Source of the DNA: an uncultured Chloroflexota bacterium
GTDB lineage: Bacteria; Chloroflexota; Limnocylindria; Limnocylindrales; CSP1-4
Reading direction: 5' to 3'
DNA length: 61,339 nucleotides
NCBI GenBank assembly: GCA_903925955.1
Contig: CAIYHO010000287.1
Span: 1 to 61,339, forward strand
Positions 22,252 through 54,679 of the stretch are shown piece by piece. Positions within the stretch are counted from its first letter, which is position 1, and the number at the start of each line of letters is the position of its first letter. The position numbers and the translations under genes are program-made. The notes beneath the pieces are model-generated. The model was not told the origin of the DNA. It did not search any database and was given only the letters and a program-made list of their open reading frames with translations.

Positions 22252-22285
22252 TGATTGTTCTGTGTACTCGCACAAAGAACAATCA
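22252..22285. promoter_or_regulatory. AT-rich inverted repeat in the divergent yhfZ-like / permease control region (candidate operator)
   Basis: TGATTGTTCT (22252-22261) and AGAACAATCA (22276-22285) are perfect 10-bp arms around 14 nt. It is the most AT-rich spot of the 461-bp divergent intergenic region. Confidence 0.4.
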
Positions 22286-24062: not shown

Positions 24063-24166
24063 AACTCTGGGCCCGGGGCACCCAACGTCGCGCTCCGCAC
24101 GAGCCGTCGGTGCCAGACCCACCCACCACCGGGCACGAAACAGTGGCATCAAGGAGTTTGAGTAGG

Positions 24167-27866: not shown

Positions 27867-29030
27867 ATGCTGGACCCCAAGCCGCTCATAACTGCGGCCC
27901 ACGATCGGGTGCTGGAGCTGTATCGACCGGATCTTGGGCGCCTGCGCGAGGAGCTCGCCACGCCCACCCTGCTCCTCGACTTGGCCGTGTTGCGCGCCAA
28001 TCTCGCGTTCATGGGCGACAACATGCGCGACGTGCCCACAGCCTTGCGCGCGCACGTCAAGGTCCACAAGAGCCCCCATATCGCGCGCCTCCAGATGGAG
28101 TACGGCGCGACCGGCGTAGGCTGTGCGACGGTATGGGAGGCCATCGTGATGGCCCGCGCCGGGATCGACGACGTGTTCGTCATCAACGAGGTCGTTGGTG
28201 CGGAGCGGGTCCGAGCGCTCGCACTTCTGGCTCGTGAGGCAAGCGTCAAGACAGCCGTGGACGACGTCGCGCAGGTGGACGCCCTGTCGCGGGCCGCCGT
28301 CGCCGCGGGCAGCACCATCGGGATCCTCGTGGACGTTGACGAGGGTATGCACCGGTGCGGCGTCGCATCGCCGGATGAGGCGCTCATCGTTGCCCGGCGC
28401 GCGGCCGACGCCCCTGGCCTGCAGTTCCTGGGGCTCACGGGGTACGAGGGGCACTGCTCGCTGGAGTTTGACGCGACCAAGCGGACCGCCATGGCGCGCG
28501 AGGCGATGGCCTACTTCACGGGAGTCGCCGAGCACTTGGCGGCCAACGGGCTCCCAAGCGAGATCGTGACCGCCGCCGGGACAGGGACCTGGGAGGTCAC
28601 CTCGCGCTACCCCGGGATCACCGAGATCCAGCCTGGGTCGTACGCGACGATGGACGGTCACCACCGAGGCCTAGACGCCCGCTTCGGCTGGGCGGTCACG
28701 GTGCTGGCCACGGTGATCAGCCGTCGGTCTGACCGCGTCGTCCTCGACGCTGGCAGCAAGACGGTTGGCGCGTCCCACGGCGTCCTCGCCGCTCCGCCCC
28801 TCGCGACATACCGCTTCGACGAGGAGCACTCGACCTTCCTCGCGGACAGCTCCTGCGCCCTACGAGTGGGCGACACGGTGGAGATCCGCTGCAACTACAC
28901 CCCCTTCGCGATCAGCTACTTCGAGGCGTACCACGTCATCGAAGGCGGGCGTGTGGTGGACATCTGGCCGGTCCTACCGCGCGGGCCGGAGTCGCGGTGG
29001 CTGCTCGACATGCTGGAGCGGGGCGAGTGA
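27867..29030 (+). CDS. DSD1-family fold-type III PLP enzyme, paralog 2
   Basis: 387 aa. Motifs: TPTLLLDLAVLRANLAFM, RAHVKVHKSPHIARLQMEYGATG, GYEGHCS, FDEEHSTF. Confidence 0.8.
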   Translation: MLDPKPLITAAHDRVLELYRPDLGRLREELATPTLLLDLAVLRANLAFMGDNMRDVPTALRAHVKVHKSPHIARLQMEYGATGVGCATVWEAIVMARAGIDDVFVINEVVGAERVRALALLAREASVKTAVDDVAQVDALSRAAVAAGSTIGILVDVDEGMHRCGVASPDEALIVARRAADAPGLQFLGLTGYEGHCSLEFDATKRTAMAREAMAYFTGVAEHLAANGLPSEIVTAAGTGTWEVTSRYPGITEIQPGSYATMDGHHRGLDARFGWAVTVLATVISRRSDRVVLDAGSKTVGASHGVLAAPPLATYRFDEEHSTFLADSSCALRVGDTVEIRCNYTPFAISYFEAYHVIEGGRVVDIWPVLPRGPESRWLLDMLERGE

Positions 29031-29070: not shown

Positions 29071-30258
29071 ATGCGAGATCCGGCGCCGCTCATAGTCGAG
29101 GCGCACAACCGCGCGCGCGACCTGTACGGGTCCGCCATCGGGCGGAGCCGGTTCGACGTCTGCACCCCTGCCCTGGTGGTGGACCTCGGGGTACTGCGCG
29201 GCAACCTCGCGTACATGCAGAGCCGTCTGCCAGCGCTGCACGCGCGCCTGCGCGGCCACGTGAAGAACCACAAGAGCCCGCATATCGCCAGGATGCAGCT
29301 GGAGTACGGCGCGTTTGGCCTGTGCGCGGCGACCGTGTGGGAGGCCATCGTCATGGTCCGCGCGGGCGCTGACGACGTGCTGATCGCCAACCAGCTCGTT
29401 GATCCGGTCAAGCGACGGGCGGCCGCGCTGCTCGCCCGCGAGGCCAACGTCCTCGTAAACGTCGACGACGTGGGCGACGCCCAGGCGCTGTCGGCAGCAG
29501 CCGTCGCCGCAGGCTCCACTATCGGCGTGCTGCTCGAGGTGGACACCGGCATGCACCGCTCGGGCGTGGACAGCGCCGAGGAGGCGGTCAGGGTCGTCAG
29601 CGGGATTGTAAACCTGCCGGGAATACGGTTCGACGGCCTGTCCGGCTACGAGGGCCACTGCTCAATGGAGATGGACCACGAGGCCCGGCACGCCAAGCAA
29701 CAGGCGGCAATCGCCTACTTCGTGGAGGTCGCGGATCAGTTGGCCGAGGCCGGTCTGCCGTGCAGGATCCTGTCAGCGGCCGGCACCGCCACCGCGTTCT
29801 GGACGGGCTCCAACCCGCGCATTACCGAGCTCCAACTGGGCTCGTACGCGGCCATGGACGACTACCACTACCTCATGGAGCCGCGCTTCCGGAAGGCGAC
29901 CTCCGCCGTGGTCACCGTCATCAGCCGGCGCGAGGATCGGCTGGTGCTCAATCTTGGCAAAAAGACATTCGGGTCGGCCGACGTGGGCGGGATACCCGCA
30001 TACCCGCGGATCATGGGTTTCGAGGACCTGCCGCCCTATCGCTTCGACGAGGAGCACGCGACGTATGTCGTGGACGATTCGTGTCCCCTCAAGGTGGGCG
30101 ACGTCGTGGACTTCCACCTGGGCTATACGCCATTCGCAGTCAACTACTTCGACGCGTACCACGTTGTCGAAGACGGCAAGGTGGTGGACATCTGGCCGAT
30201 CATGCCCCGCGGTCCCCTCCACGGTGGACTCTTGGGCGAACTCGAACCACGGATCTGA
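29071..30258 (+). CDS. DSD1-family fold-type III PLP enzyme, paralog 3
   Basis: ORF 28765..30258 trimmed to ATG 29071 (GAAGGAG RBS). Motifs: TPALVVDLGVLRGNLAYM, RGHVKNHKSPHIARMQLEYGAFG, GYEGHCS, FDEEHATY. By eye closest to paralog 2. Confidence 0.8.
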   Translation: MRDPAPLIVEAHNRARDLYGSAIGRSRFDVCTPALVVDLGVLRGNLAYMQSRLPALHARLRGHVKNHKSPHIARMQLEYGAFGLCAATVWEAIVMVRAGADDVLIANQLVDPVKRRAAALLAREANVLVNVDDVGDAQALSAAAVAAGSTIGVLLEVDTGMHRSGVDSAEEAVRVVSGIVNLPGIRFDGLSGYEGHCSMEMDHEARHAKQQAAIAYFVEVADQLAEAGLPCRILSAAGTATAFWTGSNPRITELQLGSYAAMDDYHYLMEPRFRKATSAVVTVISRREDRLVLNLGKKTFGSADVGGIPAYPRIMGFEDLPPYRFDEEHATYVVDDSCPLKVGDVVDFHLGYTPFAVNYFDAYHVVEDGKVVDIWPIMPRGPLHGGLLGELEPRI

Positions 30259-30719: not shown

Positions 30720-31742
30720 TCAGCCTCCAGGGGCCAGGTCCCGCTGGATCCGGCCGGTAAGCGGGTACTCCGGGTCGTAGTAGCCGTGGGTTGACGCGCT
30801 GCCCGGCGGGACCAGGCGGTCCACAAAGGCTGCGTCATCGGCGTTGAAGCCGTGCTCGAAGGCGCCCAAGTACTCAAGCATCTGGTCTGCGGTTCTCGGT
30901 CCCACGAGCACCGACGTGATGTGTGCGTTCGCCCGCTGCCAGTTGACCGCGAAGTGCACGGGCGTCATGCCGCGCTCCCGGGCGCGCTCTGCCATCGCGG
31001 CAGCGACGACCATCGACTCGTCGCGCCACTCGCGGCCAAGGATCTCCCTGTCGGCACGCGCCGCGCGCGACCCGTGCGGTGGCGGCTCGCCGGGACGGTA
31101 CTTGCCTGTGAGCATGCCCCGTGCGATGGGGCTGTAGGGCACCACCGCAAGCCCAAAGTGCGTTGCTGCTGGGAGCAACTCCACCTCTGGCCGTCGGTTG
31201 AGCGCGTGGTAGTACGGCTGGACGACGACGGGCGGCGCCACACCGAGGCTGCGGGCGATGCCCACCGCCTCGGCCATGCGCCAACTCCAGAAGTTGGACA
31301 CACCCCAGTAGAGCGCCTTGCCCTGGTGGACTGCGTCACCCATGGCGCGGACTGACTCTTCGAGAGGGGTGATCGGGTCGTCGAGGTGAAGGTAGAAGAC
31401 GTCCACGCGGTCCGTGCCCAGACGCCGGAGACTCCGCTCGAGCGAGAGCTGGACATGCCGTCGCGCGGTCCCGATCTGGTTCGGCCCGTCTCCAGTGGGC
31501 GGACCCACCTTGGTAGCGACAACCCAGTCATCGCGGTGCGGCGCAACGAGGCGACCAACGATCTCCTCACCCTGGCCGAGCGCGTAGCTCGCGGCGGTGT
31601 CAATGAAGTTGACGCCCGCGTCATAGGCGATCCCGACGATCGCGGCGGCCTCAGACTCCGTGGTGGCCTTGCCAAACATCATCGTCCCGAGACAGAGCGG
31701 CGAGACCATGAGGCCGCTGGCGCCGAGGGGTCGGTACTCCAT
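30720..31742 (-). CDS. Aldo/keto reductase family oxidoreductase
   Basis: ORF 30720..31946 trimmed to ATG 31742 (GGAGGA RBS). MEYRPLGASGLMVSPLCLGTMMFG..AGVNFIDTAASYALGQGEEIVG. Confidence 0.9.
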   Translation of the reverse strand: MEYRPLGASGLMVSPLCLGTMMFGKATTESEAAAIVGIAYDAGVNFIDTAASYALGQGEEIVGRLVAPHRDDWVVATKVGPPTGDGPNQIGTARRHVQLSLERSLRRLGTDRVDVFYLHLDDPITPLEESVRAMGDAVHQGKALYWGVSNFWSWRMAEAVGIARSLGVAPPVVVQPYYHALNRRPEVELLPAATHFGLAVVPYSPIARGMLTGKYRPGEPPPHGSRAARADREILGREWRDESMVVAAAMAERARERGMTPVHFAVNWQRANAHITSVLVGPRTADQMLEYLGAFEHGFNADDAAFVDRLVPPGSASTHGYYDPEYPLTGRIQRDLAPGG

Positions 31743-31768
31743 GGTGGGTCCTCCAGTATGGGCGGCCG

Positions 31769-32548
31769 TCAGCCCGCGAGGCACGCCTCGAGGTCGGCGA
31801 GGGCGATGAACGGCCCGGGGTGTGCCCCGGCACGGTTCGCGAGGATGTGCGCCTCGGGTCCGCCGGGCTCGCCCAGCGAGGACACGACGAGCGCGGCCTC
31901 GGCGAAGCCCTCGGCCTCCGTGTAGCCGTTGACCGTCACGAGGCACCGCAGGCCGGCGGCGGTCGCCGCCTCGAGCCCGTTGCGGGAGTCCTCCACGACG
32001 ACCACGTCGGCCGGGTCCGCGCCGAGCCGCCTGAGCGCGAGCAGGTAGATGTCCGGCGCGGGCTTCTTCCGGGCCACGACGTCCCCCGCGAGCACCGCGT
32101 CAAACCGCGCCGCCCGCTCGTGCCCCGCGGCCATGTCCAGGATCGCCCGGACGGACGCCTCGGCCGAAGTGGACGCCACGGCGAGCCTCCAGCCGGCGTC
32201 CTGCGCCTCCGCGATCAGCCGGGAGACGCCCGGGCGCGGCGGCAGCCGTCCCGCCCGCGCCATCTCCGTGTAGATCTCGGTCTTGCGCCTGTGCCACGCG
32301 GCCACGTGCGCCGCCAGGGCGGCCGGGTCGTCGGGCAGGCCCGCGGCGCGGATGACGTCGGGCGTGAGGGCGCTGGCCATCCGCTCCTTGCCGCCCGCGA
32401 TCCTGAGGCGCTCGCCGTACTCCTCCTCGGACCACCGCAGCGGCAGCCCGAACTCGGCGAACACGGCGTTGAACGCGGGCAGGTGCCCGTACCGCTCGGT
32501 GTCCGCGAGGACCCCGTCGCAGTCGAAGACGACGGCCCTCACTGCCAT
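31769..32548 (-). CDS. HAD-superfamily phosphatase, CbbY-like
   Basis: 259 aa. VVFDCDGVLADTE (DxDG), GGKERM, KKPAPDIY, EDSRNGLEAATAAGLRCLVT. It aligns along its length with my memory of Rhodobacter CbbY. The start overlaps the aldolase stop by 10 nt. Confidence 0.8.
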   Translation of the reverse strand: MAVRAVVFDCDGVLADTERYGHLPAFNAVFAEFGLPLRWSEEEYGERLRIAGGKERMASALTPDVIRAAGLPDDPAALAAHVAAWHRRKTEIYTEMARAGRLPPRPGVSRLIAEAQDAGWRLAVASTSAEASVRAILDMAAGHERAARFDAVLAGDVVARKKPAPDIYLLALRRLGADPADVVVVEDSRNGLEAATAAGLRCLVTVNGYTEAEGFAEAALVVSSLGEPGGPEAHILANRAGAHPGPFIALADLEACLAG

Positions 32549-33393
32549 GCCCTCCCCTCCGAGCCGAACATCCGGATGTGGCGCTCCGCCATGTCCTTGA
32601 CGGCCGCGCGCTGGGCCGCGAAGACCTTTGGCGGGTCGAACTCGCCCGGGTGCGCCGTCAGGTAGTCGAACCCGGCCGAGAGGTAGGCGACCTTGAGCGC
32701 AGTGGAGATGTTGACCTTGGCGCAGCCGCGCGAGATGAGGTCCGCGAACTGGCCGGCGCTCATCCCGGTGCCGCCGTGGAGGGCGACGGGCTTGCCGGTG
32801 GCCGCCACGATGTCCGTCACGCGCCCGGCGTCGAGCCGCGGCGCGGTCCTGTAGGTGCCGTGGGCGTTGCCGATCGCCGGGGCAAAGACGTCAACGCCGG
32901 TGGCGCCCACGAAGCGGACCACGGTCTCGAGCGACTGCACGTCCTCGGCCTCGCCGCCGGTCATCTCCTCGGTCCGCTTGAAGCCCTCGATCTCGCCCTC
33001 GACCAGGGCGCCGTAGCGCCGCGCCTCCTCCACCACCTCGATGCACTGGCGCTGGTTCTCCTCGACGCTCAGCCTGGACGCGTCGAACAGCACCGAGTTC
33101 CAGCCCCTCGCGAGGCAGTCGCTGATCACCTTGCGGTCCGGGCAGTGGTCGAGGTGGAGCGCGGCGGGCACCGACGCCTTCGAGGCATAGGCGACCCACA
33201 TCGCGTACGTCGCGTCGATCCCGGTCATCTGCACGTGCTTCACCGAGGTCTGGACGATGACGGGCGCCCGCAGCTCCTCGGCCGCCGCGAGCACCGCCTC
33301 CATCGAGAGGTCGTTGATGACGTTGATGGCCGCCACCCCGTAGCGGTCGCGGAAGGCCCGGGCGAGGATCTCCTGGGTGGGCACGATGGGCAT
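32539..33393 (-). CDS. Class II fructose/tagatose-bisphosphate aldolase-family protein
   Basis: 284 aa. MPIVPTQEILARAFRDRYGVAAINVINDLSMEAVLAAAEELRAPVIVQTS, then LHLDH, GNAHG, LHGGTG. Confidence 0.85.
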   Translation of the reverse strand: MPIVPTQEILARAFRDRYGVAAINVINDLSMEAVLAAAEELRAPVIVQTSVKHVQMTGIDATYAMWVAYASKASVPAALHLDHCPDRKVISDCLARGWNSVLFDASRLSVEENQRQCIEVVEEARRYGALVEGEIEGFKRTEEMTGGEAEDVQSLETVVRFVGATGVDVFAPAIGNAHGTYRTAPRLDAGRVTDIVAATGKPVALHGGTGMSAGQFADLISRGCAKVNISTALKVAYLSAGFDYLTAHPGEFDPPKVFAAQRAAVKDMAERHIRMFGSEGRAWQ

Positions 33394-33397
33394 CGGA

Positions 33398-34396
33398 CTA
33401 CCTCCTTGCGGGTGTTGCGGCGGCGGGGGCCGGCGGCGCGCCGGCGGCGAGGTCGAGGACGGCGCGCGCGTTGGCCGGGTCGACGATCAGCACGTCGACC
33501 ACGCCGGAGCGCAGGGTGCCGAGGATCGCCATGGGCTTCTCGGGCTCGCTGGCGACCGCGACCACGAGGCCGATGCGGCGCAGCTCGTCGAGCGACAGGG
33601 CCACGAGCCGGTCGCGGTGGGCCGACTCGACCGGCCGGCCCTCGGCATTGACGTAGTTGCCCGCGAGGTCGCCGACCGCGCCCCGCTCACGCAGGCCCGC
33701 CACCTCGGCCACCGACAGGCAGCCGCTGCGGACCATCGTGGCGCCGTCGTCCGTGCCGCCGATGCCCGCGAGCGCCATGTCCGCCCGCGCCGCGAGGCCC
33801 AGCGCGTGCGCGACGGCCTCCTGGCCCACCAGCGAGTCGCGCGCCTCGCGGCTCTCGAGGTACGCCGGGGCGAACAGCGGGACGAACCGCCCCCCGCACC
33901 GCTCGGCGAGGGCGCGGGCGATCTCGCCGGGGTTGGTGGGCGCCTCCACGTGCGGCGAGCCGCCCATCGCCGGGACGAAGGTTGCCGCCACCGGGCGCCG
34001 CGGCCGGAAGTGGGGCGGCACGCGCCCCGCGCCGCGCCCGTGGCCCACCGCCACGACCATGCCGTCCGCGAGGCGCCGCTCGAGGTACTGGGCCGCGACC
34101 CGGGCGACCGCGTCGCGCTGGTCGCCGGGGTCGGCGTGCTCCGGCGCGACGATGGCCTCCGCGAGGCCGAAGGCGCTGCGCAGGTCGCGCTCGAGGTCGA
34201 GGCGGAGCCACGGCGGCGTCTGGACGCGGATCTCCACGATCCCCGCGGCGCGGGCGCGGTCCAGGAGCCGCTGGACCTTGGGCCGCGACAGGGCGAACTC
34301 CCGCGCGACCTCCTCCTGGGTCAGCTCGTCCACCCAGTACCGGTGGGCGATGCGGACCAGGAGGTCGGCGTCGTGGCGTCGCGTGTCGTCGGGCAT
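33398..34396 (-). CDS. SorC/DeoR-type sugar-binding transcriptional regulator (the family that includes LsrR)
   Basis: 332 aa. N-terminal HTH LLVRIAHRYWVDELTQEEVAREFALSRPKVQRLLDRARAAGIVEIRV, followed by a sugar-phosphate-binding domain. Confidence 0.85.
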   Translation of the reverse strand: MPDDTRRHDADLLVRIAHRYWVDELTQEEVAREFALSRPKVQRLLDRARAAGIVEIRVQTPPWLRLDLERDLRSAFGLAEAIVAPEHADPGDQRDAVARVAAQYLERRLADGMVVAVGHGRGAGRVPPHFRPRRPVAATFVPAMGGSPHVEAPTNPGEIARALAERCGGRFVPLFAPAYLESREARDSLVGQEAVAHALGLAARADMALAGIGGTDDGATMVRSGCLSVAEVAGLRERGAVGDLAGNYVNAEGRPVESAHRDRLVALSLDELRRIGLVVAVASEPEKPMAILGTLRSGVVDVLIVDPANARAVLDLAAGAPPAPAAATPARR

Positions 34397-34485
34397 GGTC
34401 GCTGGCCCCTAGTGGAGTGAGCAATTGCGCAGACATGGGCAACTGATCGGCACCAGTGTACCCCGGGTGCCTGCCGGGACCATGC

Positions 34486-35214
34486 CTAAGCGCGCCCGGC
34501 CGCCGTCCGCACTGCGTCGAGCATGAATGCGGCGTTCTCGGCGGCCGCCTTCCCGTCGAAGACCGCGCTGCCGGTCACGATGAGGTCCACGCCGAGTCCC
34601 GCGATCTGCGCAATGTTGGCTCGGGTGACTCCACCGTCCACGCCGAGGAGGATCTCGCGGCCGGACGCGGCGATCAGCTCGCGAGCGTGAGCGAGCCGCG
34701 TCTCGGTGGACGCGATGAACGCCTGACCGCCCCAGCCTGGGTTGACGGCGAGGATCTGGACAAACTCCACCTCGTCGAGCAGCGGGGTGATCACCTCCAC
34801 CGGCGTGCCCGGGTTGATCGAGATGCCGCGAATGATCCCGCGCTCGGGATCGTTGGCGTTGACGGCTTTGGCCAGGACCTGGAGGGCCCGGTGCGGGTGG
34901 CGCGTCCCCTCCGGGTGGATCGCGATGATGTCCGCCCCGGCGGCGACAAAGGCCTCAACCTTGTCCTCGGGCGCCATCACCATGAGGTGCGCGTCCTTGA
35001 GCAGGGTTGTGCGCTGGGCCTTCACGATTGGCGCCCCTAGGGTGAGTCCGGGGCAGAAGACCCCGTCCATGACGTCGGTGTGGACGATCTCCGCACCTGC
35101 GTGCTCAAGCAGCGCCAGCTCTGCGCCCAGCAGCATCAGGTCTGCGGTGAGGATGCCGATGCTGAGGTGAGGACCGTCCCGGCGGAGACGGGCGACAAGC
35201 TCCGAGGCGGCCAT
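34486..35214 (-). CDS. Ribulose-phosphate 3-epimerase-family protein (Rpe / LsrE-like)
   Basis: 242 aa. Motifs: [36 protein letters not shown]. Confidence 0.9.
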
Positions 35215-35226
35215 GATGCCCTCCGG

Positions 35227-36126
35227 TCAGGCGGGGGCGAGGCCGGCAGGATCCTCGCGACGGAGCGTCTCGAAGAGCTCCAGCGCGTGGTCCGGCCGCA
35301 TGTTCTCGTGGACTACTTTGCGGACGGCCTTGAGCATCGCGATGGGCGAGTCGCTCTGGAAGATGTTGCGGCCCATGTCCACGCCGGCGGCACCCGCCTG
35401 CACGGCGTTGTAGGCCATCTTGAGCGCGTCGAGCTCCGCCAGCTTCTTGCCCCCGGCCATCACCACCGGGACCGGGCATGCAGCCGTCACGGTGTCGAAG
35501 TCCTCCTCGCAGTAGTAGGTCTTGACCACCTGTGCGCCCAACTCCGCGATGATCCGGCAGGCCAGCCCCAGGTAGCGAGCATCACGTGTCAACTCCCGGC
35601 CAACGGCGGTCACGCCCAGGACCGGCACGCCGTAGCGCAGGCCCTGGTCCACAAGGCGGGTCATGTTGTGGACAGTCTGAGTCTCGTGCTCGCCGCCGAT
35701 GAAGACCTGGACGCCGACGCCCACCGCATTGAGCCGTAACACGTCGTCGATGTCCACGGCGATCTGCTCGTCGGACAGATCCTTGAGGATGGACGGGCCG
35801 CCGCTGGCCCGGAGCCAGATGGGCGCCCGGGTTGCCGCCGGGACCACCGAGCGCACGATGCCGCGCGTCACAAACAGGGAGTCCACGTACGGGACGAGTG
35901 GCAGGATATTGACGTCTATACGCTCAAGGCCCGTGGTAGGGCCCTGGAAGTAGCCGTGGTCGATGGCGAGCATGACCGCTCGCCCGCTGTCAGGCGCAAA
36001 GACCCGGGCGAGCCGGTTCTGCATGCCCCAGTCGTAGGCGCCGGACCCCTTGAGGAAGAACGCGGTGTTCCGCTGCGGGATGTCCTGGTGGTAGAGCTTG
36101 GCTTCGGTTGCGTCGGCCTCGGGCAT
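35227..36126 (-). CDS. lsrF: LsrF-like class I (DhnA/DeoC-fold) aldolase/thiolase (3-hydroxy-5-phosphonooxypentane-2,4-dione thiolase homolog)
   Basis: ORF 35227..36216 trimmed to ATG 36126. [70 protein letters not shown] matches E. coli LsrF (remembered) over the whole length. Confidence 0.85.
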
Positions 36127-36194
36127 CGGAGGAGTCCCTTCGTGGGGTTCGGGGCGTCGGCGACCCCGTGGGCAGGTGACAGATGTGGCGTAGG

Positions 36195-37751
36195 TTAGGT
36201 CCCAGCTGCCCGCCAAAGCGGCTGGAGCAGCCCAGCCTCAGACAGCTCCAACTGGCGGGCGTAGACCGCGGACCAGCGCTCGAAGAGGCCGCGGTAGGCC
36301 TCGTGGGCGGCGGGATCCGGCTCGACCGTGCGCTCGATGCGGACTACACGCCTCGCCTGGACCTCGATGCTCGGGAACAGGCCGGCGCCCACGCCCGCGC
36401 AGATCGCGGCGCCGAGCGCCGTGGACTCCTTGACCATGGGGATGGAGACCGGCACGCCCAGGGTGTCCGCCAGGATGCGGGGCCACAGCGTCCCCTTGGC
36501 GCTGCCGCCGGTGAACACGACGCCAGAGACCGTCTGCCCCACGAGGTCCTCGATGATGCCGAGGTGACCGCGAGCCACGTAGGCGGCGCTCTCCTCGATC
36601 GCCCGAATGGCCGCCACCCGGTTGGATCGGGCCGGATCATCTACGTTGAACTGCAAGAACGACGGCGAGGCGTGAACCCAGCGCTTGGCGTCCATGAAGT
36701 TGGAGAAGATCCCCAGCACTCCGTTGGCTCCCGGCGGGATCGCAGCCGCCGCCTCCTCCATGACCACGTAGGGGTCCACGCCGCGCTCACGAGCTTGCAG
36801 TTTCTCAAGCTCGCAGAACGCGTCGCGGTACCAGCGCATGGTGATGCCGCAGTAGAAGCCGATGCCCTCCACCATCCAGCGATTCGGGACCACGTGGCAG
36901 AGAGTCCGGAGGCGGGCCTGGGGATCCACGAGGGGACGATCCACAACTACCGTGGTCTGCCAGAAGCTGCCGCCCACGATCGTCACGCGGCCGGGGTCGG
37001 TCACGCCGATGCCGAGCAGCCCCATCTGGGTGTCCGCACCGCCAACCACCACGAGCGTGGAGGGCGAAAGGCCGGTCTGGCGGCTGGCCTCCGGCGTCAC
37101 CGTGCCGATCACGGTCCCACACTCACGAACCGGCGGGAAGACGTCCACTGGAAACTCGCACAGCTCGATGATCTCGCGCGACCAGGTTCGTGCTGCCAGA
37201 TCGAACATCCCGGAACTGGACCCGCAGGACGGGTCCGTGACGAATTCGCCCGACAGCCGCGCCAACACCCAGTCGCTGAGCATCGTCACGTGGGCGACCC
37301 GGCGACGGACCTCCGGGTCATGGGCAGTGATCCAGAGAAGGCGCGCCGGCGAGGTGATCGACACCCAGTCGCCGCCCGTGTCGAAGATCCGCCGCGCGTC
37401 GCCGCGAGATACCAGCAGTCCGGCCTCGGCCACCGCCCGGGAGTCCACGTTGGGGCAGGCCCAAATCTCCGCGCCGTCCCGGTCGTAGAGAACGATGCCC
37501 TCGCGCATACTCGCGCTGCTCACAGCGGCAATCCCACCAGGCCCCACCCCCGAGGCCGCGACCGCCTCCCGGATGCACTCGCAGATCAGCGCCCAGTTCG
37601 CGCGAGTGTCAAATACCTGCGAGCCGGGGAAGCCGGGCAGGCTAGCGTGGCGCCACTCCCGCTGGCCCGCCGCAAGTTGGTTGCCGTCCGTGTCGAAAAT
37701 GATTGCCCGACAGCTACCGGTGCCCAGGTCGATCGCCAGCGTCGCGCTCAT
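36195..37751 (-). CDS. lsrK: LsrK-like FGGY kinase (autoinducer-2 / DPD kinase homolog)
   Basis: 518 aa. [89 protein letters not shown] parallels E. coli LsrK (remembered) from end to end. Confidence 0.85.
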
Positions 37752-38803
37752 CGCCCCCGCCGCTCGGCCAGCGATACCCCGTTTGCCGTGCTGCGCAGCG
37801 GTTCTCCGCTGGCAAAGCGCTCAACCTCCGCGGCCGCCATTTCGCCGCCGCGCCTGAGGGTCTCGAGCGTGGAGCCGCCGATGTGGTTGAGGACCATCGT
37901 GTTGGGCGTGGCGAGGATCCGGCGCGGGCCGCCGGCGGGCGACGGGCAAGCAATGTCCAGCGCAGCTCCACCAAGATGTCCAGACTCGAGCGCGTCGCAC
38001 AGCGCGTCCTCGTCCACCAGTTCCGCCCGGGCGGCATTGATGAACATGGCGCCTCGCTTCATTGCCGCCAGGCGGACAGCCCCGAACATGCCGCGGTTCT
38101 CGGGCGTCAGACGGGCGTGCAGGGACACGTAGTCGGACGCCGCGAGGAGGGTGTCAAGGTCCACTCTCGTTACGCCGGGCGCAGTGATGGAGGCTGCGTC
38201 CACGAACGGGTCGTACACAAGCACAGACATCCCAAACGCAAGAGCCCGCGTAGCGACACGACTGCCAACTTGGCCGTAGCCCACCAACCCCAAGACATGG
38301 CCGTCGAGGTCGTGGCCAAACCATCTGGCACCCTCGTAGTTGTCTACGGCGTAGTCGCCGCCCGCGTCCACGTGGCGCATCGACCCCGCCACGCGACGCC
38401 CCAGCATGACCATGAGCCCGAGTGTGAGCTCGGCTACGGCCACGGCGTTCTTGCCGGGCGTGATGGCCACCGGGATCCCGCGCTCCGTGGCTGCGGCAAC
38501 GTCCACGTTCACCGGCCCGCCGCGAGCAACGCATACGAGCCCCAGAGGCGCCGCATCGAGGACAGCATCCGAGACGGGCGCCCCCTGAACAACGAGGACG
38601 TCGTGCCCGCGGAGCTGTGAAATCACCCGGCCGGGACTGCCCAAGAACTCCCTGAGGCGAAGTTCGGACGGGCTCGCCGGCCGCCAGTCCGGCTCGTCGG
38701 GCAGATCGTAGAAGGTAACGTCGTGGTTCGAGCGGAGCCGCAGGAACGGCTCGCCGAACGCGCTCGTCGGGCAGTAGGAGTCACCGACGACGAGGATCTT
38801 CAT
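37748..38803 (-). CDS. D-isomer-specific 2-hydroxyacid dehydrogenase family (PGDH-like)
   Basis: ORF 37748..38821 trimmed to the seventh codon ATG (MKILVVGD..). NAD motif GLVGYGQVGSRVA and catalytic-domain motifs (ARGGPVNVD, DVLVVQGAP). The stop overlaps the lsrK start (ATGA). Confidence 0.85.
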   Translation of the reverse strand: MKILVVGDSYCPTSAFGEPFLRLRSNHDVTFYDLPDEPDWRPASPSELRLREFLGSPGRVISQLRGHDVLVVQGAPVSDAVLDAAPLGLVCVARGGPVNVDVAAATERGIPVAITPGKNAVAVAELTLGLMVMLGRRVAGSMRHVDAGGDYAVDNYEGARWFGHDLDGHVLGLVGYGQVGSRVATRALAFGMSVLVYDPFVDAASITAPGVTRVDLDTLLAASDYVSLHARLTPENRGMFGAVRLAAMKRGAMFINAARAELVDEDALCDALESGHLGGAALDIACPSPAGGPRRILATPNTMVLNHIGGSTLETLRRGGEMAAAEVERFASGEPLRSTANGVSLAERRGR

Positions 38804-38851
38804 CGACCGACCTTCAGGCAATCTGGCGAGCCGGGCGAGCCGGCGATTGGA

Positions 38852-39349
38852 TTACGGGTACTGACGGACGGGCGTGAGCTCGATCGCATGCCCGCTGCCG
38901 GACTCCGCGACGAAGTGCACAGCCGGCATCGTGTCCACATAGTAGAACTCGATGGTCTCGCCGATTCGGCCGCCCATCAGGACCTCGTGGCCAGCGTCCT
39001 TGAAACGCTGCTTGAACTCGTCCGACTCTTCCTGGGTGTGGTGCATCATCGCGATGTGCTGGACGCCCTCGCCGTATGTGGCGAGGTGCTCCTTGTAGAT
39101 CGAGTCACCCTCGAGCGGCTGGATGAGTTCGAACACGAGTCCGGGCTGGATCTCGCACTCGGCGCCGATCATCGAGTAGTGCGCCGGCTGGCCGTGCAGA
39201 TGCTGATCGTGGAGTTTTGGCTCAACGTGCTCGTAGACGTTCCACGGCCCCCAGCCGAAGAGCTCGTGGTAGGACTTCATGGCGGCGTCGATGTCCTTTA
39301 CCACCACCGCAATCTGCGAGATCCGGTAGGGCGTGGCAGGCGGTTCCAT
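38852..39349 (-). CDS. VOC-superfamily (glyoxalase / methylmalonyl-CoA epimerase-like) protein
   Basis: 165 aa. RISQIAVVVKDIDAAMKSYHELFGWGPW..ELIQPLEGDSIYKEHLATYGEGVQHIAMM. Confidence 0.75.
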   Translation of the reverse strand: MEPPATPYRISQIAVVVKDIDAAMKSYHELFGWGPWNVYEHVEPKLHDQHLHGQPAHYSMIGAECEIQPGLVFELIQPLEGDSIYKEHLATYGEGVQHIAMMHHTQEESDEFKQRFKDAGHEVLMGGRIGETIEFYYVDTMPAVHFVAESGSGHAIELTPVRQYP

Positions 39350-39398
39350 GGTCCCTCCAGGGACATCGATGCGACGTAGACGGATATCCGAACAACTG

Positions 39399-39412
39399 TG
39401 ACAGCGCTGTCA
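39399..39412. promoter_or_regulatory. Perfect 14-bp palindrome TGACAGCGCTGTCA, 50 bp upstream of the VOC gene (candidate operator)
   Basis: Read directly at 39399-39412. It sits in the locally AT-richer stretch ccgaacaacTGTGACAGCGCTGTCAaatcc at the head of the long minus-strand operon. Confidence 0.4.
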
Positions 39413-39998
39413 AATCCGCGCCATGTCGCCTCCTCACCGGGCGTCGGCCAGTTGGCCTCAGGGCGGGCCTGGCCAAGGAGGGCGATGGCTCTGGAGCCGT
39501 GCGTGACTGGAACGCCTGCTTCGCGAGCCGAGGCCGCCTCGAGCCACCTGCATCGATCGGCATCGGCTGACCTGCAAGTCAACCTGCAAACTCCACGGGC
39601 GTGCTCTCGGGTACGGCACCCGGGATGAGCGACTGAGCGACCGCTATCGGCGTCTCGTCCGGCTCTAGGCAGATGCCCGACCGGAGCAGGCCAGCGACAG
39701 CCCAGATGCAGTCACCACGACATGCCTGGGATCTAGGTCGAGCCAGCTAACCACCCGATCAAAACCGAACAAGCCCTATGTCTCTTGCCTGCTTGAGGCG
39801 ACGTGGTGCCGGCGGCCGCCGGGGGGGGCTCGCCGCGGGCTCAGCCCTTGTGGTGGAACGAACGGCCACATCCGTCAATGCATGGGCGTCCCGGGCACAC
39901 CAATGCCCAGTAGCCGCAGCCGACTTGTCACGTCGCATGCCTCCCGCCGGGGCGTGCGACGTGATGCCGGTCATCTCCCGGCCTCGCGGCTTCTGCCA

Positions 39999-40460: not shown

Positions 40461-41254
40461 CAGGCGTGCCTCCCTGGGCTGGGCGGAGCGTCCCTGTCAC
40501 CGGCCATCCGGGCGGCCAGAAACGCGATGGTTGCAAGGTTGGCTGGATCAAGCGCGGAGCGGCCCACAAACACGCCGTCCACGCCGCCGCGGGACAGGAT
40601 CCCGGGTGCGCTTGCGGGATCCACGCTCCCGCCGTAGATGACGCGCCCAACCGACGGGCGGTCTGCGAGGCAGTCAAGTTCAGCGTGGATTGCCAGGTGG
40701 ACCGCCTCCACGTGGGCGGGGTCCGCCGGCACGGCGCCAATGCCGATGGCCCAGACGGGCTCGTAGGCCACGATGACATGTGCGATGGCTGCGGGGTCAA
40801 GCCTCGCCAGCCCGGCCCGCACTTGGCCCGTCACGAATGCCGCCGCAGCCGCAGTCTCGCCGGCCGCCGGTTCGCCAACGCACATGATGGGGATCATGCC
40901 GTGCGCCACGATGCGCTCCACCTTGGCGGCAACCACGTCATCGGTCTCGCCGTGGTCGCGGCGGCGCTCAGAGTGGCCGCACGCCACAAACCGACAGCCA
41001 AGGTCCGCAAGCATGGCCGCTGAGACATCGCCGGTATGGGCGCCCCCCTCTGCTGCGTGGACGTCTTGGGCGCCCCACGCGATGCCGCTGCCCGCCAGCT
41101 CCGCGCGAGCCACCCAGATGGACGTGAAGGGCGGCAGCACAAACAGGTCCACGCCGTCCAGACCAGCGGCGTGTTCCCGGAGCGCCGTGAAGTACGCGGC
41201 GGCCTCGCTGCTGGTGAGGTTCATCTTGGTGCTGGTGCCCACCAGCGGCCTCAC
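40460..41254 (-). CDS. Triosephosphate-isomerase-family protein (non-canonical paralog)
   Basis: ORF 40460..41641 trimmed to GTG 41254 (GGAGG RBS; GTGA overlap with the dak stop). VGTSTKMNL (TIM has GNWKMN), CGHSERR, AYEPVWAIGIG, IYGGSV. Confidence 0.8.
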   Translation of the reverse strand: MRPLVGTSTKMNLTSSEAAAYFTALREHAAGLDGVDLFVLPPFTSIWVARAELAGSGIAWGAQDVHAAEGGAHTGDVSAAMLADLGCRFVACGHSERRRDHGETDDVVAAKVERIVAHGMIPIMCVGEPAAGETAAAAAFVTGQVRAGLARLDPAAIAHVIVAYEPVWAIGIGAVPADPAHVEAVHLAIHAELDCLADRPSVGRVIYGGSVDPASAPGILSRGGVDGVFVGRSALDPANLATIAFLAARMAGDRDAPPSPGRHA

Positions 41255-42993
41255 CTCGCGGCCTCCAGGACGCGGCCCACGGCGCCGGCGCAGATCACAA
41301 ACGACACGGCGCCCGCGTCCCGGTGTCCAAGACTCCGCTCGGCAAGCGGACGCGCCCGGCCAATCCGCGGCAGGAGACCCGCCGTGGCCTCTGCCGCAAC
41401 CGAGGCGGCCGATACCGCGCGTCCCCAAGCGTCTGGGAGCTCCGCCCCCGCCAGAATCGCCGCCTCGAGCGCGTCTGCAAACGGGACCATCGCGTCCACC
41501 ATCGTCTTGTCGCCAAGGACTGCCCCGCCCGTGCGGCGTACAGCGTCCACGGCGGCGCGGGCTCCAGAGGCTGTGGCGGCTGCCGTGACAATCGCCGCGT
41601 CGCTGTACGCCGCAGCCCACGCGTTGAGCGCCACGCCCCACAGCGCGCCAGACGTGCCGCCGCCGCGGTCAGCCCAGGCGTCTGCCGCGGCGGCAAGCGC
41701 GCTTCTGGCACCGGCACCCGCCCCTGCGGCCGCATCTGCCGCTGCGACGGCAGCGCCGAGGCCCCGGACCATCCCGCGGCCGTGGTCGCCGTCTCCGGCC
41801 TCCGCGTCCAGGCGCCCAAGCGCTTCCTCAGCCTCACGGACGTCCGTGAGGGCTGCCGCGAGACAGCGGGCGATGAGCGCGGCGCCGTCCCTTGATCCGG
41901 ACGTGGACGGGGGCCACGCCACAGGAGCGGCGGGCGCTGGCGCCGCCGTCGGCCCCGGCGCCTCGACGCGTCCCTCGGCCGACACACCAGCGCCAACCGC
42001 ATCACCCCGGCGGAAGGCCGGAGCATGTGCGGGCGCCAGCCAGAGCCGCTCCAGCTCCTCGTCCAGCCAGGTGATGGTCAGCGAGCATCCGGCCATGTCC
42101 AGACTGGTGACAAACTCGCCCACCTGTGGGGCCACCAGCGTCAGCCCGGCGGCGCAGAGCATCGGGGCCACGAAGCGCCACAGGACAAACAGCTCTTCAT
42201 GCTTGGTGGCGCCAAGGCCATTGAGGATGACCGCCACGCGCAAACCGCCGTTGGCCGGCGCCTCAGCCAGAAGCCTATCCACCAGCAGCCGCGCAAGATC
42301 CTCCGCCGGGACGATTGGCGCGTCGGACACACCGGGCTCCCCGTGGATCCCCATCCCCACGCCCATCATCCCGGGCGGCAGCGTGAACAGCGGCGCCGAT
42401 GCCCCGGGCAGCGTGCAGCCGGCAAAGGCCAGCCCAAGCGACCTCGTCCGCTCGTTGGCACGGGCGGCGATGCCTGTCACGACCTCAAGGTTGGCGCCTG
42501 CCTCCGCCGCGGCGCCAGCCACCTTGAACACAACCACGCCCCCGGCCACGCCCCTGCGGCGGTAAGGCTCGTTGGGCGGCGCGCTCGCCACGTCATCCGT
42601 CACCAGGACAATCCGCGTGTCGATACCCAGCGTGCGGAGGGCATCGGCGGCTGCGCTGAAGTTGAGGACGTCGCCCGCGTAGTTGCCAAACGTGAGGAGG
42701 ACGCCGCCGCCCCGAGAGGCGACAGTTGCCACGTCAATCACGGCGCGCGATGAGGGAGACGCAAACACGTCGCCCATGACGGCCGCATCGGCCAGCCCGG
42801 CGCCCACATAGCCCGCAAACAGCGGGTAGTGGCCGGAGCCGCCGCCGGTGACGACGGCCACCTTGCCCGCAGGCGTTGCGGTGGCGCGGATGACACCGCC
42901 CTGCACCGCCCGCACAAGGTCCGCGTACGCGTCCACAAACCCTGCGGCAGCGTCCGCCGAAAACAAGCCAGGCGTGGCGACGATGTGCGTCAT
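41251..42993 (-). CDS. Dihydroxyacetone-kinase-family protein, fused DhaK-DhaL (ATP-dependent type)
   Basis: ORF 41251..43092 trimmed to ATG 42993 (MTHIVATPGLF..). DhaK motifs VVTGGGSGHYPLFAGYVG and GIHGEPG, an Ala/Pro-rich linker, then a DhaL domain (DGDHG, GGTSGALWG). Confidence 0.85.
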   Translation of the reverse strand: MTHIVATPGLFSADAAAGFVDAYADLVRAVQGGVIRATATPAGKVAVVTGGGSGHYPLFAGYVGAGLADAAVMGDVFASPSSRAVIDVATVASRGGGVLLTFGNYAGDVLNFSAAADALRTLGIDTRIVLVTDDVASAPPNEPYRRRGVAGGVVVFKVAGAAAEAGANLEVVTGIAARANERTRSLGLAFAGCTLPGASAPLFTLPPGMMGVGMGIHGEPGVSDAPIVPAEDLARLLVDRLLAEAPANGGLRVAVILNGLGATKHEELFVLWRFVAPMLCAAGLTLVAPQVGEFVTSLDMAGCSLTITWLDEELERLWLAPAHAPAFRRGDAVGAGVSAEGRVEAPGPTAAPAPAAPVAWPPSTSGSRDGAALIARCLAAALTDVREAEEALGRLDAEAGDGDHGRGMVRGLGAAVAAADAAAGAGAGARSALAAAADAWADRGGGTSGALWGVALNAWAAAYSDAAIVTAAATASGARAAVDAVRRTGGAVLGDKTMVDAMVPFADALEAAILAGAELPDAWGRAVSAASVAAEATAGLLPRIGRARPLAERSLGHRDAGAVSFVICAGAVGRVLEAAR

Positions 42994-43160
42994 CAGCGGC
43001 GGCTGGCCGGGGCGTGACGGGACATGCGGGTACGGCTCCTCTTCGGGGCGCCCATGCCCGGCAGGCCAGATCAGGACTACGACCACCGGCACGAGGGCAT
43101 AGGCATTATCGCCTGCGCCAGCGGCAGCCAGCCGAGCGCGCCGCAGACCCGCGCGCCGCG

Positions 43161-45405: not shown

Positions 45406-45752
45406 GAGCGGTGATCCCCCATCGTTGCCGGCGGCAGCGCGGGGTTGAACACCACAAACGCGGGATCGTCGTCGCTGACCACGGCAGGCTCATCCATGCC
45501 CGGACCCATCGTCATCAGCTCGGGCGTCATGACGCCCATCTCGTCGAGGATCTGGAGCGTCTTGAGCGCCTCCGCCTCGTCAACCTTGCTGATGGCAAAG
45601 CCGACATGGATGATTACGTAATCGCCAAGCTGCGCCTCGGGCAGGTACGCGAGGCAGGCGTCCTTGCGCACGCCGCCAAAGTCCACCTTGCCCATGGCCA
45701 GCCCGGCCTCGTCGCGGATCTCCGTGATCCGCCCCGGAATTCCCAGACACAT
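45402..45752 (-). CDS. hypC: Hydrogenase maturation chaperone HypC/HupF family, with an extended C-terminus
   Basis: ORF 45402..45827 trimmed to ATG 45752 so that the protein begins MCLGIPG (essential Cys2). 116 aa, compared with the roughly 75-95 aa I would expect. Confidence 0.85.
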
Positions 45753-45756
45753 CGTG

Positions 45757-54670: not shown

Positions 54671-54679
54671 CTGAGGTCC

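Follow-up and report, generated by a model that had tools for sequence, protein, structure and literature searches.

A conserved, probably catabolic gene cluster with LsrK- and LsrF-family enzymes in an uncultured Chloroflexota bacterium

Introduction

Does a locus that carries LsrK- and LsrF-like enzymes serve the signal autoinducer-2 (AI-2), or might these enzymes take part in the catabolism of some other compound? The question is raised by contig CAIYHO010000287.1 of an uncultured Chloroflexota bacterium (GenBank assembly GCA_903925955.1), which we analyzed over the whole stretch from position 1 to 61,339 of the forward strand (61,339 nucleotides, hereafter the window). Nine adjoining genes on the minus strand include a kinase of the FGGY family and a DhnA-fold enzyme that resemble LsrK and LsrF of the enterobacterial lsr system. 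We propose that these genes form the lower half of a catabolic locus which spans about 29 kb in convergent operons (about 14.2-43.1 kb of the window), and we are highly confident that this locus is catabolic and not devoted to quorum sensing.

An earlier annotation of the same DNA, referred to here as the original prediction, had read the nine genes as a transporter-less set of lsr-like genes in a high-GC actinobacterium. It suggested that they detoxify phospho-DPD (P-DPD; DPD, 4,5-dihydroxy-2,3-pentanedione) formed within the cell or, as a second possibility, that they catabolize a different pentulose. Its view that the locus is not a conventional lsr quorum-sensing locus is upheld by our results; several of its other claims had to be modified, as described below. 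The lsr variants treated by Quan and Bentley (2012) are proteobacterial and Firmicute only.

Results and Discussion

The kinase and the DhnA-fold enzyme are assigned to the LsrK and LsrF families

Genes in the window were called from an open reading frame (ORF) listing, analysis of GC content at third codon positions and scans against Pfam and NCBIfam; the features of the locus are collected in Table 1. The Pfam and NCBIfam scans placed all nine predicted genes on the minus strand at or near their predicted positions. The order of transcription is a glyoxalase-I-like protein of the VOC (vicinal oxygen chelate) superfamily, a D-2-hydroxyacid dehydrogenase family enzyme (HADH), the kinase, the LsrF-like enzyme, an Rpe-like epimerase, a SorC-type regulator, a class II ketose-bisphosphate aldolase (FBA), a phosphatase-family protein of the HAD superfamily and an aldo-keto reductase (AKR). 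The intergenic spacing of -10 to +89 nt and the GGAGG-like ribosome-binding sites ahead of most of the genes support a single transcription unit. The stop codon of the HADH gene overlaps the start codon of the kinase gene by 4 nt, suggesting that the two enzymes catalyze consecutive steps. A scan of 30-43.5 kb for promoters and terminators gave nothing above the shuffle background, and when the whole window was scanned against Rfam, no family reached its gathering score.

The window kinase scored above the equivalog cut-off of the LsrK model (Table 1), with XylB as the next best NCBIfam model at 212 bits, and it aligned over its full length with E. coli LsrK (46% identity; E. coli residues 15-529). 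The reference proteins of E. coli K-12 were taken from the annotated lsr locus. The LsrF-like enzyme likewise passed its equivalog cut-off and was 57% identical to E. coli LsrF in a full-length alignment. The catalytic or phosphate-binding residues of LsrF are D57, H58, K203, G226, G227, D251, G253 and R254, of which K203 is the Schiff-base lysine and H58, G226, G227, G253 and R254 bind phosphate (Diaz et al. 2009, PMC2728841). By pairwise alignment the window protein has the identical residue at all eight positions, and the stretches flanking them have hardly diverged. By these sequence comparisons the kinase belongs to the LsrK family and the DhnA-fold enzyme to the LsrF family, as the original prediction had claimed.

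Relatives of the locus were collected by a pattern scan over GTDB species, each represented by a single genome. More than 600 stretches matched, of which the best 80 loci, with kinases 52-68% identical to the window kinase, were examined. We built a neighbor-joining (NJ) tree, without bootstrap and with the second FGGY kinase of the window as the single outgroup, in which the LsrK proteins of E. coli, S. meliloti, Deinococcus and Bacillus N5 formed one clade and the window kinase, together with 70 kinases from related loci, formed its sister. The kinase scores as an LsrK on the equivalog model and lies outside the canonical LsrK clade in this tree. Identity inside the window-type clade is 52-88%. 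The homologs found in a plasmid collection are all canonical LsrKs, 43-48% identical to the window kinase, and the plasmid-borne examples of S. meliloti and Salmonella are accompanied by LsrACDB and LsrG. The canonical Salmonella and Deinococcus loci also have a small cupin-domain gene directly after lsrK (L085:11565-11915 and L082:10557-10955).

The two neighbors of the LsrF gene are less close to their lsr counterparts. The Rpe-like protein, proposed earlier to correspond to LsrE, has 42% identity with E. coli Rpe and 37% with Salmonella LsrE, and the FCP and IRGIS motifs are common to it and LsrE; E. coli Rpe and LsrE are only 25% identical to each other. It failed the LsrE-type model PRK14057 (133 bits against 530) and passed the Rpe subfamily model NF004076 (166.8 against 165). 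That the protein is nearer to LsrE than Rpe is suggests that the kinase, the LsrF-like enzyme and the epimerase share a history with lsr. The regulator had been placed in the LsrR family. It is 30% identical to E. coli LsrR and lies below the LsrR cut-off (NF011947, 116 bits against 486), and a DeoR model of the B. subtilis type scored higher (142 bits); from its sequence we classify it as a member of the SorC family only.

The cluster is conserved across phyla

All counts out of 80 given below were obtained by tblastn with the window proteins and by de novo clustering of flanking ORFs; 50 of the 80 loci have at least 6 kb on both flanks of the kinase and are called complete. Among these best 80 loci the carriers are mainly Chloroflexota, Actinomycetota (Thermoleophilia, Acidimicrobiia and Streptosporangiaceae) and Dormibacterota. 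Minor carriers are Bathyarchaeia, Nitrososphaerales, one Alphaproteobacteria metagenome-assembled genome (MAG), one 'Ca. Acidiferrales' MAG and one Bacillota isolate.

The VOC gene was found in 65 of the 80 loci, HADH in 63, a short-chain dehydrogenase/reductase (SDR) in 57, LsrF in 52, the Rpe gene in 40, and the SorC regulator and an APC-family permease in 36 each. The permease figure is an undercount, for in two archaeal loci tblastn overlooked divergent APC permeases that Pfam finds. These partners are followed by a PF04199 'cyclase'-family protein (32-33 of 80), DUF4432 (27), a phosphomannose isomerase-like cupin (17), a class II aldolase-family protein (16) and a 660-aa protein resembling the D-apionate lactonase ApnL (13). 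Fold-type-III enzymes dependent on pyridoxal 5'-phosphate (PLP), of which the window has three paralogs, gave counts of 36, 18 and 6 by best-matching paralog. Among the 50 complete loci, 46 have the VOC gene, 44 HADH, 43 a PLP enzyme, 37 LsrF, 31 Rpe and 30 the APC permease. The VOC, HADH, SDR, LsrF, Rpe, SorC, APC, cyclase, DUF4432 and PLP genes are all present in the window.

The arrangement of these genes is conserved as well. HADH lies directly upstream of the kinase in 63 of the 80 loci, the Rpe gene comes after LsrF in 40, and the order VOC-HADH-kinase-LsrF-Rpe recurs in dozens of the loci and in several phyla, which is far beyond chance. Single-strand operons of the order SorC-APC-DUF4432-PLP-SDR-cyclase-VOC-HADH-kinase occur in three loci (L038, L049 and L059), and operons of the order kinase-LsrF-Rpe-PLP-SDR-cyclase-APC-DUF4432-cupin-VOC in four (L011, L023, L026 and L052). 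These one-strand operons imply that the partners form one system.

The cluster is not transporter-less, as had been thought: the APC permease is a conserved partner and often shares an operon with the kinase. Nor are the HAD protein (2 of 80), the FBA (2 of 80) and the AKR (4 of 80) core parts, as which they had been listed. The HAD protein had been called CbbY-like; its HAD-IA family membership holds, and the label is not supported beyond that, the best model (beta-phosphoglucomutase-family hydrolase) being below its cut-off. Other accessory genes are a dihydroxyacetone-kinase-type (Dak) protein and a triose-phosphate-isomerase-family (TIM) protein in 11 loci each, RpiB in 10 and E1 alpha/beta subunits of a thiamine diphosphate (ThDP)-dependent dehydrogenase in 8.

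The closest relative with enough flanking DNA (L090, kinase 84% identical) has the same Dak-TIM-RpiB ... FBA-HAD-AKR layout, with convergent genes for three PLP enzymes and the second kinase. A second near relative (L088, kinase 77% identical) has the upstream half in common with the window, and its contig stops just past the kinase; the FBA-HAD-AKR block was seen in only one of the two nearest relatives checked (L090), and the RpiB-type gene in both. Additional synteny with the window, at 72-86% identity, was found in a Chloroflexota MAG (L007). The VOC and permease proteins fall in 90%-identity clusters with 'Chloroflexota bacterium' proteins, and the best relatives of the kinase come from Chloroflexota or Dormibacterota MAGs, with an 80% match from Chloroflexota. 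The high-GC actinobacterium of the original prediction is therefore unlikely and a member of the Chloroflexota most likely, since both the cluster mates at 90% identity or more and the nearest relatives are Chloroflexota MAGs.

The lsr importer and LsrG are missing

We searched the window by tblastn with LsrA, LsrB, LsrC, LsrD and LsrG of E. coli and recovered no match at E<0.01, in agreement with the original prediction. LsrG, the ABM-fold P-DPD isomerase, was also sought with the E. coli and S. meliloti proteins at E<=1; neither query gave a credible match, whether in the window or among the 80 loci (about 1.4 Mb). The E. coli LuxS query gave no credible match within the window. A ribose-type ATP-binding cassette (ABC) system adjoins the kinase in only one of the 80 loci, that of Pseudogracilibacillus sp. 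SO30301A (L045), and the binding protein there shares just 23% identity with LsrB of E. coli.

The VOC protein is a candidate for the missing isomerase

By its Pfam match (Glyoxalase_4) and its conserved residues the VOC protein belongs with the glyoxalase-I-like VOC metalloenzymes, which have paired beta-alpha-beta-beta-beta modules and four metal ligands. Four residues of the VOC protein, Q12, E64, H98 and E149, are conserved at 97% or more in 40 homologs. Their role as metal ligands is assigned by motif position, and together they form what we take to be the ligand set of zinc-type glyoxalase I. Glyoxalase I moves a carbonyl to the neighboring carbon via a metal-bound enediolate, and the reaction of LsrG on P-DPD is of the same type. 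The presence of a VOC protein with this Q/E/H/E site in 65 of the 80 loci, and the absence of an LsrG-like ORF from all of them, make it the most plausible substitute for LsrG, a replacement that the original prediction had also put forward. Loci in which other genes take the place of HADH and LsrF still have the VOC subfamily, the archaeal and Firmicute versions included. In the Pseudogracilibacillus locus the VOC protein is a tandem fusion (L045:8937-9914), the two copies being 44-47% identical to the window VOC; the fusion adjoins the kinase, the ribose-type binding protein and the ABC transporter, and the locus is without a PLP enzyme. This is the only example from a cultured isolate among the 80 loci. 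A VOC gene near the S. meliloti lsr operon was considered as a link and rejected, being unrelated to the window VOC.

The PLP enzymes appear to be an uncharacterized subfamily

The nearest PDB entry to the three PLP paralogs is D-threonine aldolase (173 bits). Their domain architecture is that of the D-threonine aldolase/D-serine dehydratase family, and two of the three have the PLP-lysine motif HxKxHK. They differ from this family at the metal site: the H-x-D/C-P motif is absent from all three window paralogs, which read QVRTT, NYTPF and GYTPF at this position, and from 52 of 52 homologs in related loci (L002-L081). The loss of the metal site in every cluster member suggests an uncharacterized subfamily whose reaction is probably new, differing from those of D-threonine aldolase and D-serine dehydratase.

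Two back ends follow the kinase

Four Bathyarchaeia loci (L013, L037, L044 and L048) and the Pseudogracilibacillus locus are without HADH and LsrF. In all five the genes directly after the kinase encode E1 alpha, E1 beta and a lipoyl E2, with an E3 in addition in Pseudogracilibacillus, and in most of them a VOC gene and an AraD-like class II aldolase-family gene stand ahead of the kinase. Acting on 1-deoxypentulose-5-phosphate, an E1-E2(-E3) complex would give acetyl-CoA, triose phosphate and NADH, an outcome of the same kind as that of HADH followed by LsrF. The HADH-LsrF and E1-E2 back ends look interchangeable.

A proposed pathway

The gene identities, the conservation of the cluster, the conserved catalytic residues and the absence of LsrG and LsrACDB are our fixed points; from them we infer the substrate, the direction of flux and the roles of the VOC, HADH and PLP enzymes. 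The presence of an APC permease and of PLP enzymes suggests an amine-bearing substrate. An aldose-type precursor is suggested by the aldose-1-epimerase-like structure related to DUF4432, by the SDRs resembling sugar 1-dehydrogenases and by the ApnL-like lactonase. In the scheme that we favor, a small amine-bearing, sugar-like compound would be imported by the APC permease and reworked by an upper set of enzymes (DUF4432, the SDRs, the lactonase- or amidase-like hydrolases and the PLP enzymes lacking the metal site), to which the second FGGY kinase would have been added in the lineage of the window. The product of the upper set would be a C5 methyl-keto sugar of the DPD or 1-deoxypentulose type.

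The LsrK-clade kinase would then phosphorylate the terminal CH2OH of this product, and the VOC protein would perform the enediolate carbonyl shift that is the task of LsrG in enterics. HADH would adjust the oxidation state beside the acetyl carbonyl, giving 3-hydroxy-2,4-pentanedione-5-phosphate (P-HPD), and the Rpe/LsrE-like enzyme would fix the configuration at C3. The LsrF-clade enzyme would form a Schiff base on its conserved lysine and transfer the acetyl group to CoA, yielding dihydroxyacetone phosphate (DHAP) and acetyl-CoA. The SorC regulator probably senses a phosphorylated intermediate, and the Dak, TIM and RpiB proteins, with the FBA, HAD and AKR proteins, may be lineage-specific accessories that handle triose or tetrose by-products. 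We regard this specific C5 methyl-ketone scheme as tentative, with somewhat less than an even chance of being correct.

A more far-reaching version is speculative and, in our estimate, fairly unlikely. It holds that the VOC-HADH-kinase-LsrF-epimerase module is the ancestral context of the Lsr enzymes and the lower half of an undescribed pathway, in which the metal-less PLP enzymes act on an imported amino sugar or amino polyol, for example an aminopentose, and turn its HOCH2-CH(NH2)- end into CH3-CO-, with or without prior phosphorylation. If it were true, there would be an enzymatic, LuxS-independent route to DPD- or 1-deoxypentulose-type compounds, the 'AI-2 processing' of enterics would be a later recruitment of an old catabolic module, and the label 'autoinducer-2 kinase' in soil metagenomes would in many cases carry no information on quorum sensing.

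Several observations weigh against the C5 scheme. The kinase is sister to canonical LsrK and not nested in it, and at 46% identity its specificity may differ. About a quarter of the complete loci have no LsrF gene within 10 kb of the kinase. The VOC gene persists beside the E1-E2 back end, where an isomerase converting P-DPD to P-HPD is not obviously needed. Enzymes of the 2-hydroxyacid dehydrogenase family normally require a carboxylate beside the carbon that is oxidized, a requirement that an acid sugar fits better than a methyl ketone. In the window HADH, whose nearest solved structures are of the phosphoglycerate dehydrogenase type (144 bits), R259 and H307 are conserved, and we could not discern the catalytic Glu that the D-x-x-x-x-E-P motif usually supplies. 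The PLP enzymes are without the metal motif of their nearest characterized relatives, and full-text literature searches turned up no characterized pathway or publication for this cluster.

Alternative explanations

The main alternative is a pathway for a C4 acid sugar of the tetronate type, in which the kinase acts on 2-oxo-tetronate; we consider it quite unlikely. An amino sugar would be converted to a 2-amino-2-deoxy-aldonate by an SDR and the lactonase, and a PLP enzyme would release glycine and a tetrose or 2-oxoaldehyde. VOC and HADH would then give 2-oxo-tetronate (HOOC-CO-CHOH-CH2OH), which is isosteric with DPD (CH3CO-CO-CHOH-CH2OH). After formation of the 4-phosphate by the kinase, the VOC protein or an Rpe-like isomerase would produce 3-oxo-tetronate-4-phosphate, to be split into DHAP and CO2 by an LsrF-like enzyme or an OtnC-like one of the class II aldolase family, with Dak, TIM and RpiB taking erythrulose to erythrose-4-phosphate on a side branch.

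The attraction of this C4 route is that every conserved partner receives the chemistry typical of its family, such as a 2-hydroxyacid dehydrogenase on a 2-hydroxy acid and an E1-E2-E3 complex on a 2-oxo acid; the SDR, the ApnL-like lactonase and the mutarotase-like protein would suit an oxidative route from an aldose, and the Dak, TIM and RpiB genes of the window recur in about 11 loci. The LsrF-like enzyme speaks against it, however, since a switch to a decarboxylase should have left more trace than is seen in a protein 57% identical to E. coli LsrF with nearly unchanged active-site segments at the strand ends. The kinase passes the LsrK equivalog cut-off, and the PLP enzymes are without the metal site that D-threonine aldolases use in retro-aldol cleavage. 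The class II aldolase-family proteins of the window and of one archaeal locus (L037) do score on the 3-oxo-tetronate-4-phosphate decarboxylase (OtnC) model, at 92 and 82 bits, but these values are far under its cut-off of 250, and the archaeal protein scores higher on L-ribulose-5-phosphate 4-epimerase models (188 bits), a reaction that has no place on a C4 acid.

A tetronate pathway of this general plan is known (PMC12994016): a dehydrogenase (Ltn2D or DenD), the enediol isomerase OtnI, the kinase OtnK and OtnC convert L-threonate or D-erythronate to DHAP. The sequence of dehydrogenase, enediol isomerase, kinase and C-C cleavage leaving DHAP is alike in both systems, and class II aldolase-family proteins occur in 16 of our loci. 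The proteins themselves differ, the window kinase being of the FGGY/LsrK type and not DUF1537, the isomerase candidate being VOC-fold and not OtnI, and the cleaving enzyme being of the LsrF type.

Straightforward scavenging or quenching of AI-2 (DPD) is rather improbable. It would involve import by the APC permease (by the ABC transporter in Bacillota), a true LsrK, the VOC protein in place of LsrG and then LsrF, and it would make the PLP, SDR and hydrolase genes a separate neighboring pathway. The equivalog-level scores of LsrK and LsrF and the conserved LsrF residues would agree with this, as would the invariant association with VOC where LsrG is absent from the window and all 80 loci; so would the Pseudogracilibacillus locus, which has no PLP enzyme and in which an ABC transporter and a ribose-type binding protein accompany the kinase clade and the tandem VOC. 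Yet a PLP enzyme is found in 43 of the 50 complete loci, often in the same operon, between permease and VOC, and HADH, found in 63 of the 80 loci and translationally coupled to the kinase, has no role in the conversion of DPD to P-DPD and P-HPD. The typical cargo of APC permeases is amino acids and organic cations, as opposed to neutral furanosyl compounds. The low identity of the Pseudogracilibacillus binding protein to LsrB and the separation of the kinase clade from canonical LsrK also count against scavenging.

The detoxification suggested by the original prediction, a repair function independent of any importer that destroys diketo-pentoses arising spontaneously from ribulose-5-phosphate and in which FBA, HAD and Rpe tie the cluster to side products of the pentose phosphate and Calvin pathways, is highly improbable. 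LsrACDB is indeed absent from the window, the VOC and HADH families are those of enzymes of methylglyoxal detoxification, and hydrogenase maturation genes and a RuBisCO-like protein lie nearby. However, the tight linkage to a conserved importer, PLP enzymes, sugar dehydrogenases and lactonase-like hydrolases is a catabolic signature that points to an imported compound, and the SorC repressor and the YhfZ/GntR regulator imply induction by a substrate. FBA, HAD and AKR are rare among the loci, the RuBisCO homolog (5 of 80 loci) is form-IV-like, nearest to MtnW and not a carboxylase, and a phosphoribulokinase was not found among the scanned window ORFs. The spontaneous product of ribulose-5-phosphate is DPD, formed by elimination of phosphate, and not P-DPD. 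A Calvin-cycle (cbb) reading of FBA, HAD and Rpe is ruled out by the occurrence of HAD and FBA in only two of the 80 loci and by the form-IV-like character of the RuBisCO homolog. The second suggestion of the original prediction, the use of a different pentulose-like compound, is closer to the evidence.

Comparison with other systems and significance

The likeness to the enterobacterial lsr system lies in the LsrK- and LsrF-family enzymes, with the catalytic Lys and Asp and the phosphate-binding residues of LsrF, in the LsrE-like Rpe gene after LsrF and in the SorC regulator. The window differs by lacking LsrACDB and LsrG, by a kinase of the sister clade and by a regulator and an epimerase below the LsrR and LsrE cut-offs. 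Loci of the window type moreover have VOC, HADH, PLP enzymes, SDRs, hydrolases and an APC permease as conserved partners, and their carriers are soil Chloroflexota, Actinomycetota, Dormibacterota and some archaea.

Pathways for tetroses and tetritols use a Dak-like kinase with TIM-like and RpiB-like isomerases (DerK, DerI1 and DerI2 of M. smegmatis; EryH and EryI of Brucella). A Dak-TIM-RpiB trio heads the minus-strand operon of the window and sits in about 11 related loci, but it is accessory and not core, and the signature of an erythritol or threitol dehydrogenase or kinase was not found. The acetoin/2-oxoacid dehydrogenase complexes have counterparts in the E1 alpha and E1 beta genes of the window and in the E1-E2(-E3) genes that follow the kinase where HADH and LsrF are missing. 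The window differs from them in that no E2 or E3 was identified beside its E1 genes, and a link of such a complex to a phosphorylated C5 acyloin would be an extrapolation.

What is new here is the finding of Lsr-family enzymes in a different, conserved and much larger system, with another importer, another candidate isomerase and extra steps, mainly in uncultured soil lineages. In the MAGs from soil, peat and sediment that our searches returned, this kinase bears the label 'autoinducer-2 kinase' from public pipelines. If the clade is catabolic, with an importer of its own and without LsrB and LsrG, then inferences of AI-2 sensing or quenching in soil communities drawn from such annotations are unsafe. 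The cluster also suggests an origin for the Lsr degradation enzymes.

For enzymology the loci offer a natural experiment, in which the same pair of kinase and VOC protein precedes HADH and LsrF in some cases and a ThDP-dependent E1-E2 complex in others, as well as a PLP subfamily without a metal site, a candidate P-DPD isomerase that is not of the ABM fold, and conserved DUF4432 and PF04199 proteins. Every step could be tested with purified proteins and commercial or synthetic C4 and C5 substrates, and the Pseudogracilibacillus isolate is a possible experimental entry point.

Features of the extended locus

Table 1. Genes of the extended locus, listed in order of falling position; positions are those of the window
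Feature	Position	Strand	Support
Fused DhaK-DhaL, dihydroxyacetone/triose(tetrulose)-kinase family (Dak); first gene of the minus-strand operon	41251-43092	-	Pfam Dak1 + Dak2; NF011049, 696 bits vs 492
Triose-phosphate-isomerase-family protein (TIM), 264 aa	40460-41254	-	Pfam TIM, 222 bits; TIGR00419 above cut-off
RpiB/LacAB-type sugar-phosphate isomerase, 153 aa	39999-40460	-	Pfam LacAB_rpiB, 162 bits
VOC (glyoxalase-I-like), 165 aa; proposed LsrG analog	38852-39349	-	Pfam Glyoxalase_4
D-2-hydroxyacid dehydrogenase family enzyme (HADH), 351 aa	37748-38803	-	Pfam 2-Hacid_dh + 2-Hacid_dh_C
LsrK-clade FGGY kinase, 518 aa	36195-37751	-	NCBIfam NF008187, 627 bits vs cut-off 528
LsrF-clade class I aldolase-fold (DhnA-fold) enzyme, putative P-HPD thiolase, 299 aa	35227-36126	-	NF006081, 472 bits vs cut-off 297
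Rpe/LsrE-like 3-epimerase, 242 aa	34486-35214	-	Pfam Ribul_P_3_epim
SorC/DeoR-type sugar-phosphate-sensing regulator, 332 aa	33398-34396	-	Pfam Sugar-bind, 208 bits
Class II ketose-bisphosphate aldolase (FBA), 284 aa; lineage-specific addition	32539-33393	-	Pfam F_bP_aldolase; NCBIfam equivalogs all below cut-off
HAD-IA phosphatase-family protein, 259 aa; lineage-specific addition	31769-32548	-	Pfam HAD families; only HAD-IA subfamily model passed
Aldo-keto reductase (AKR), 340 aa; lineage-specific addition	30720-31742	-	Pfam Aldo_ket_red, 213 bits
Three paralogous fold-type-III PLP enzymes, D-Thr aldolase/D-Ser dehydratase family	26754-27839, 27867-29030, ~29071-30258	+	Pfam Ala_racemase_N, D-ser_dehydrat
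Second FGGY kinase, XylB-like; common to L012 and L090	25231-26757	+	Below all cut-offs
SDR oxidoreductase	24110-24934	+	Pfam adh_short_C2
APC-family permease, 486 aa; candidate importer	22542-24002	+	Pfam AA_permease
YhfZ-type GntR regulator, divergent from APC operon; 5/80 loci	21130-22491	-	Pfam YhfZ_C + GntR; NF041241, 189 bits, below cut-off
ThDP-dependent E1 alpha, pyruvate/acetoin dehydrogenase type	20132-21094	-	
ThDP-dependent E1 beta, pyruvate/acetoin dehydrogenase type	19066-20052	-	
Second SDR	18304-19062	-	Glucose 1-dehydrogenase subfamily model passed (NF005559, 255 bits vs 215)
RuBisCO-like protein, form IV type, nearest MtnW	17064-18323	-	Pfam RuBisCO_large, 120 bits; PDB 2ZVI, 213 bits
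DUF4432, mutarotase-like	15897-17006	-	62% identity to Pfam-typed L007 copy; PDB 3TY1 'hypothetical aldose 1-epimerase'
PF04199 'cyclase'-family metal hydrolase, lactonase or amidase candidate	14912-15841	-	75% identity to Pfam-typed L007 copy
Class II aldolase/adducin-family protein	14190-14819	-	Pfam Aldolase_II, 145 bits

The plus-strand genes for the APC permease, SDR, second kinase and PLP enzymes are accompanied by a SnoaL-like ORF. One ORF family from the clustering (C19) was discarded, being a shadow ORF antisense to the APC permease. The RuBisCO-like protein lies below both MtnW equivalog models (261 bits against a cut-off of 409, and 234 against 514); its homologs in the five loci include one from a Bathyarchaeia MAG.

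The RpiB and VOC genes of the window are separated by a non-coding gap of 649 nt (39350-39998), a position that is filled in L088 and L090 by a gene for an extra SorC-family regulator. No remnant of this gene was detectable in the gap of the window, and the repeats within the gap, considered as operators, were short and unconvincing.

Immediately upstream of the locus are the hydrogenase maturation genes hypE, hypD, hypC and hypF (43161-48180, minus strand), and a LuxR-type response regulator is at 48259-49149. A corrinoid methyltransferase set occupies 53009-58598 and comprises a methylenetetrahydrofolate reductase-like protein, a reductive activator of the RACo type, a B12-binding protein and an MttB-family methyltransferase. 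The end of the window (59017-61337) encodes a beta-eliminating lyase and an enoyl-CoA hydratase. Beyond the opposite end of this locus, unrelated genes extend over 1258-12178: a second AKR (1258-2424), a DHO_dh-like protein (2295-3527), an NCS1 permease (3734-5461), a CitMHS transporter (5563-7233), a PPK2 protein (6894-7877), a helicase (8299-10041) and a SulP-STAS transporter (10211-12178).

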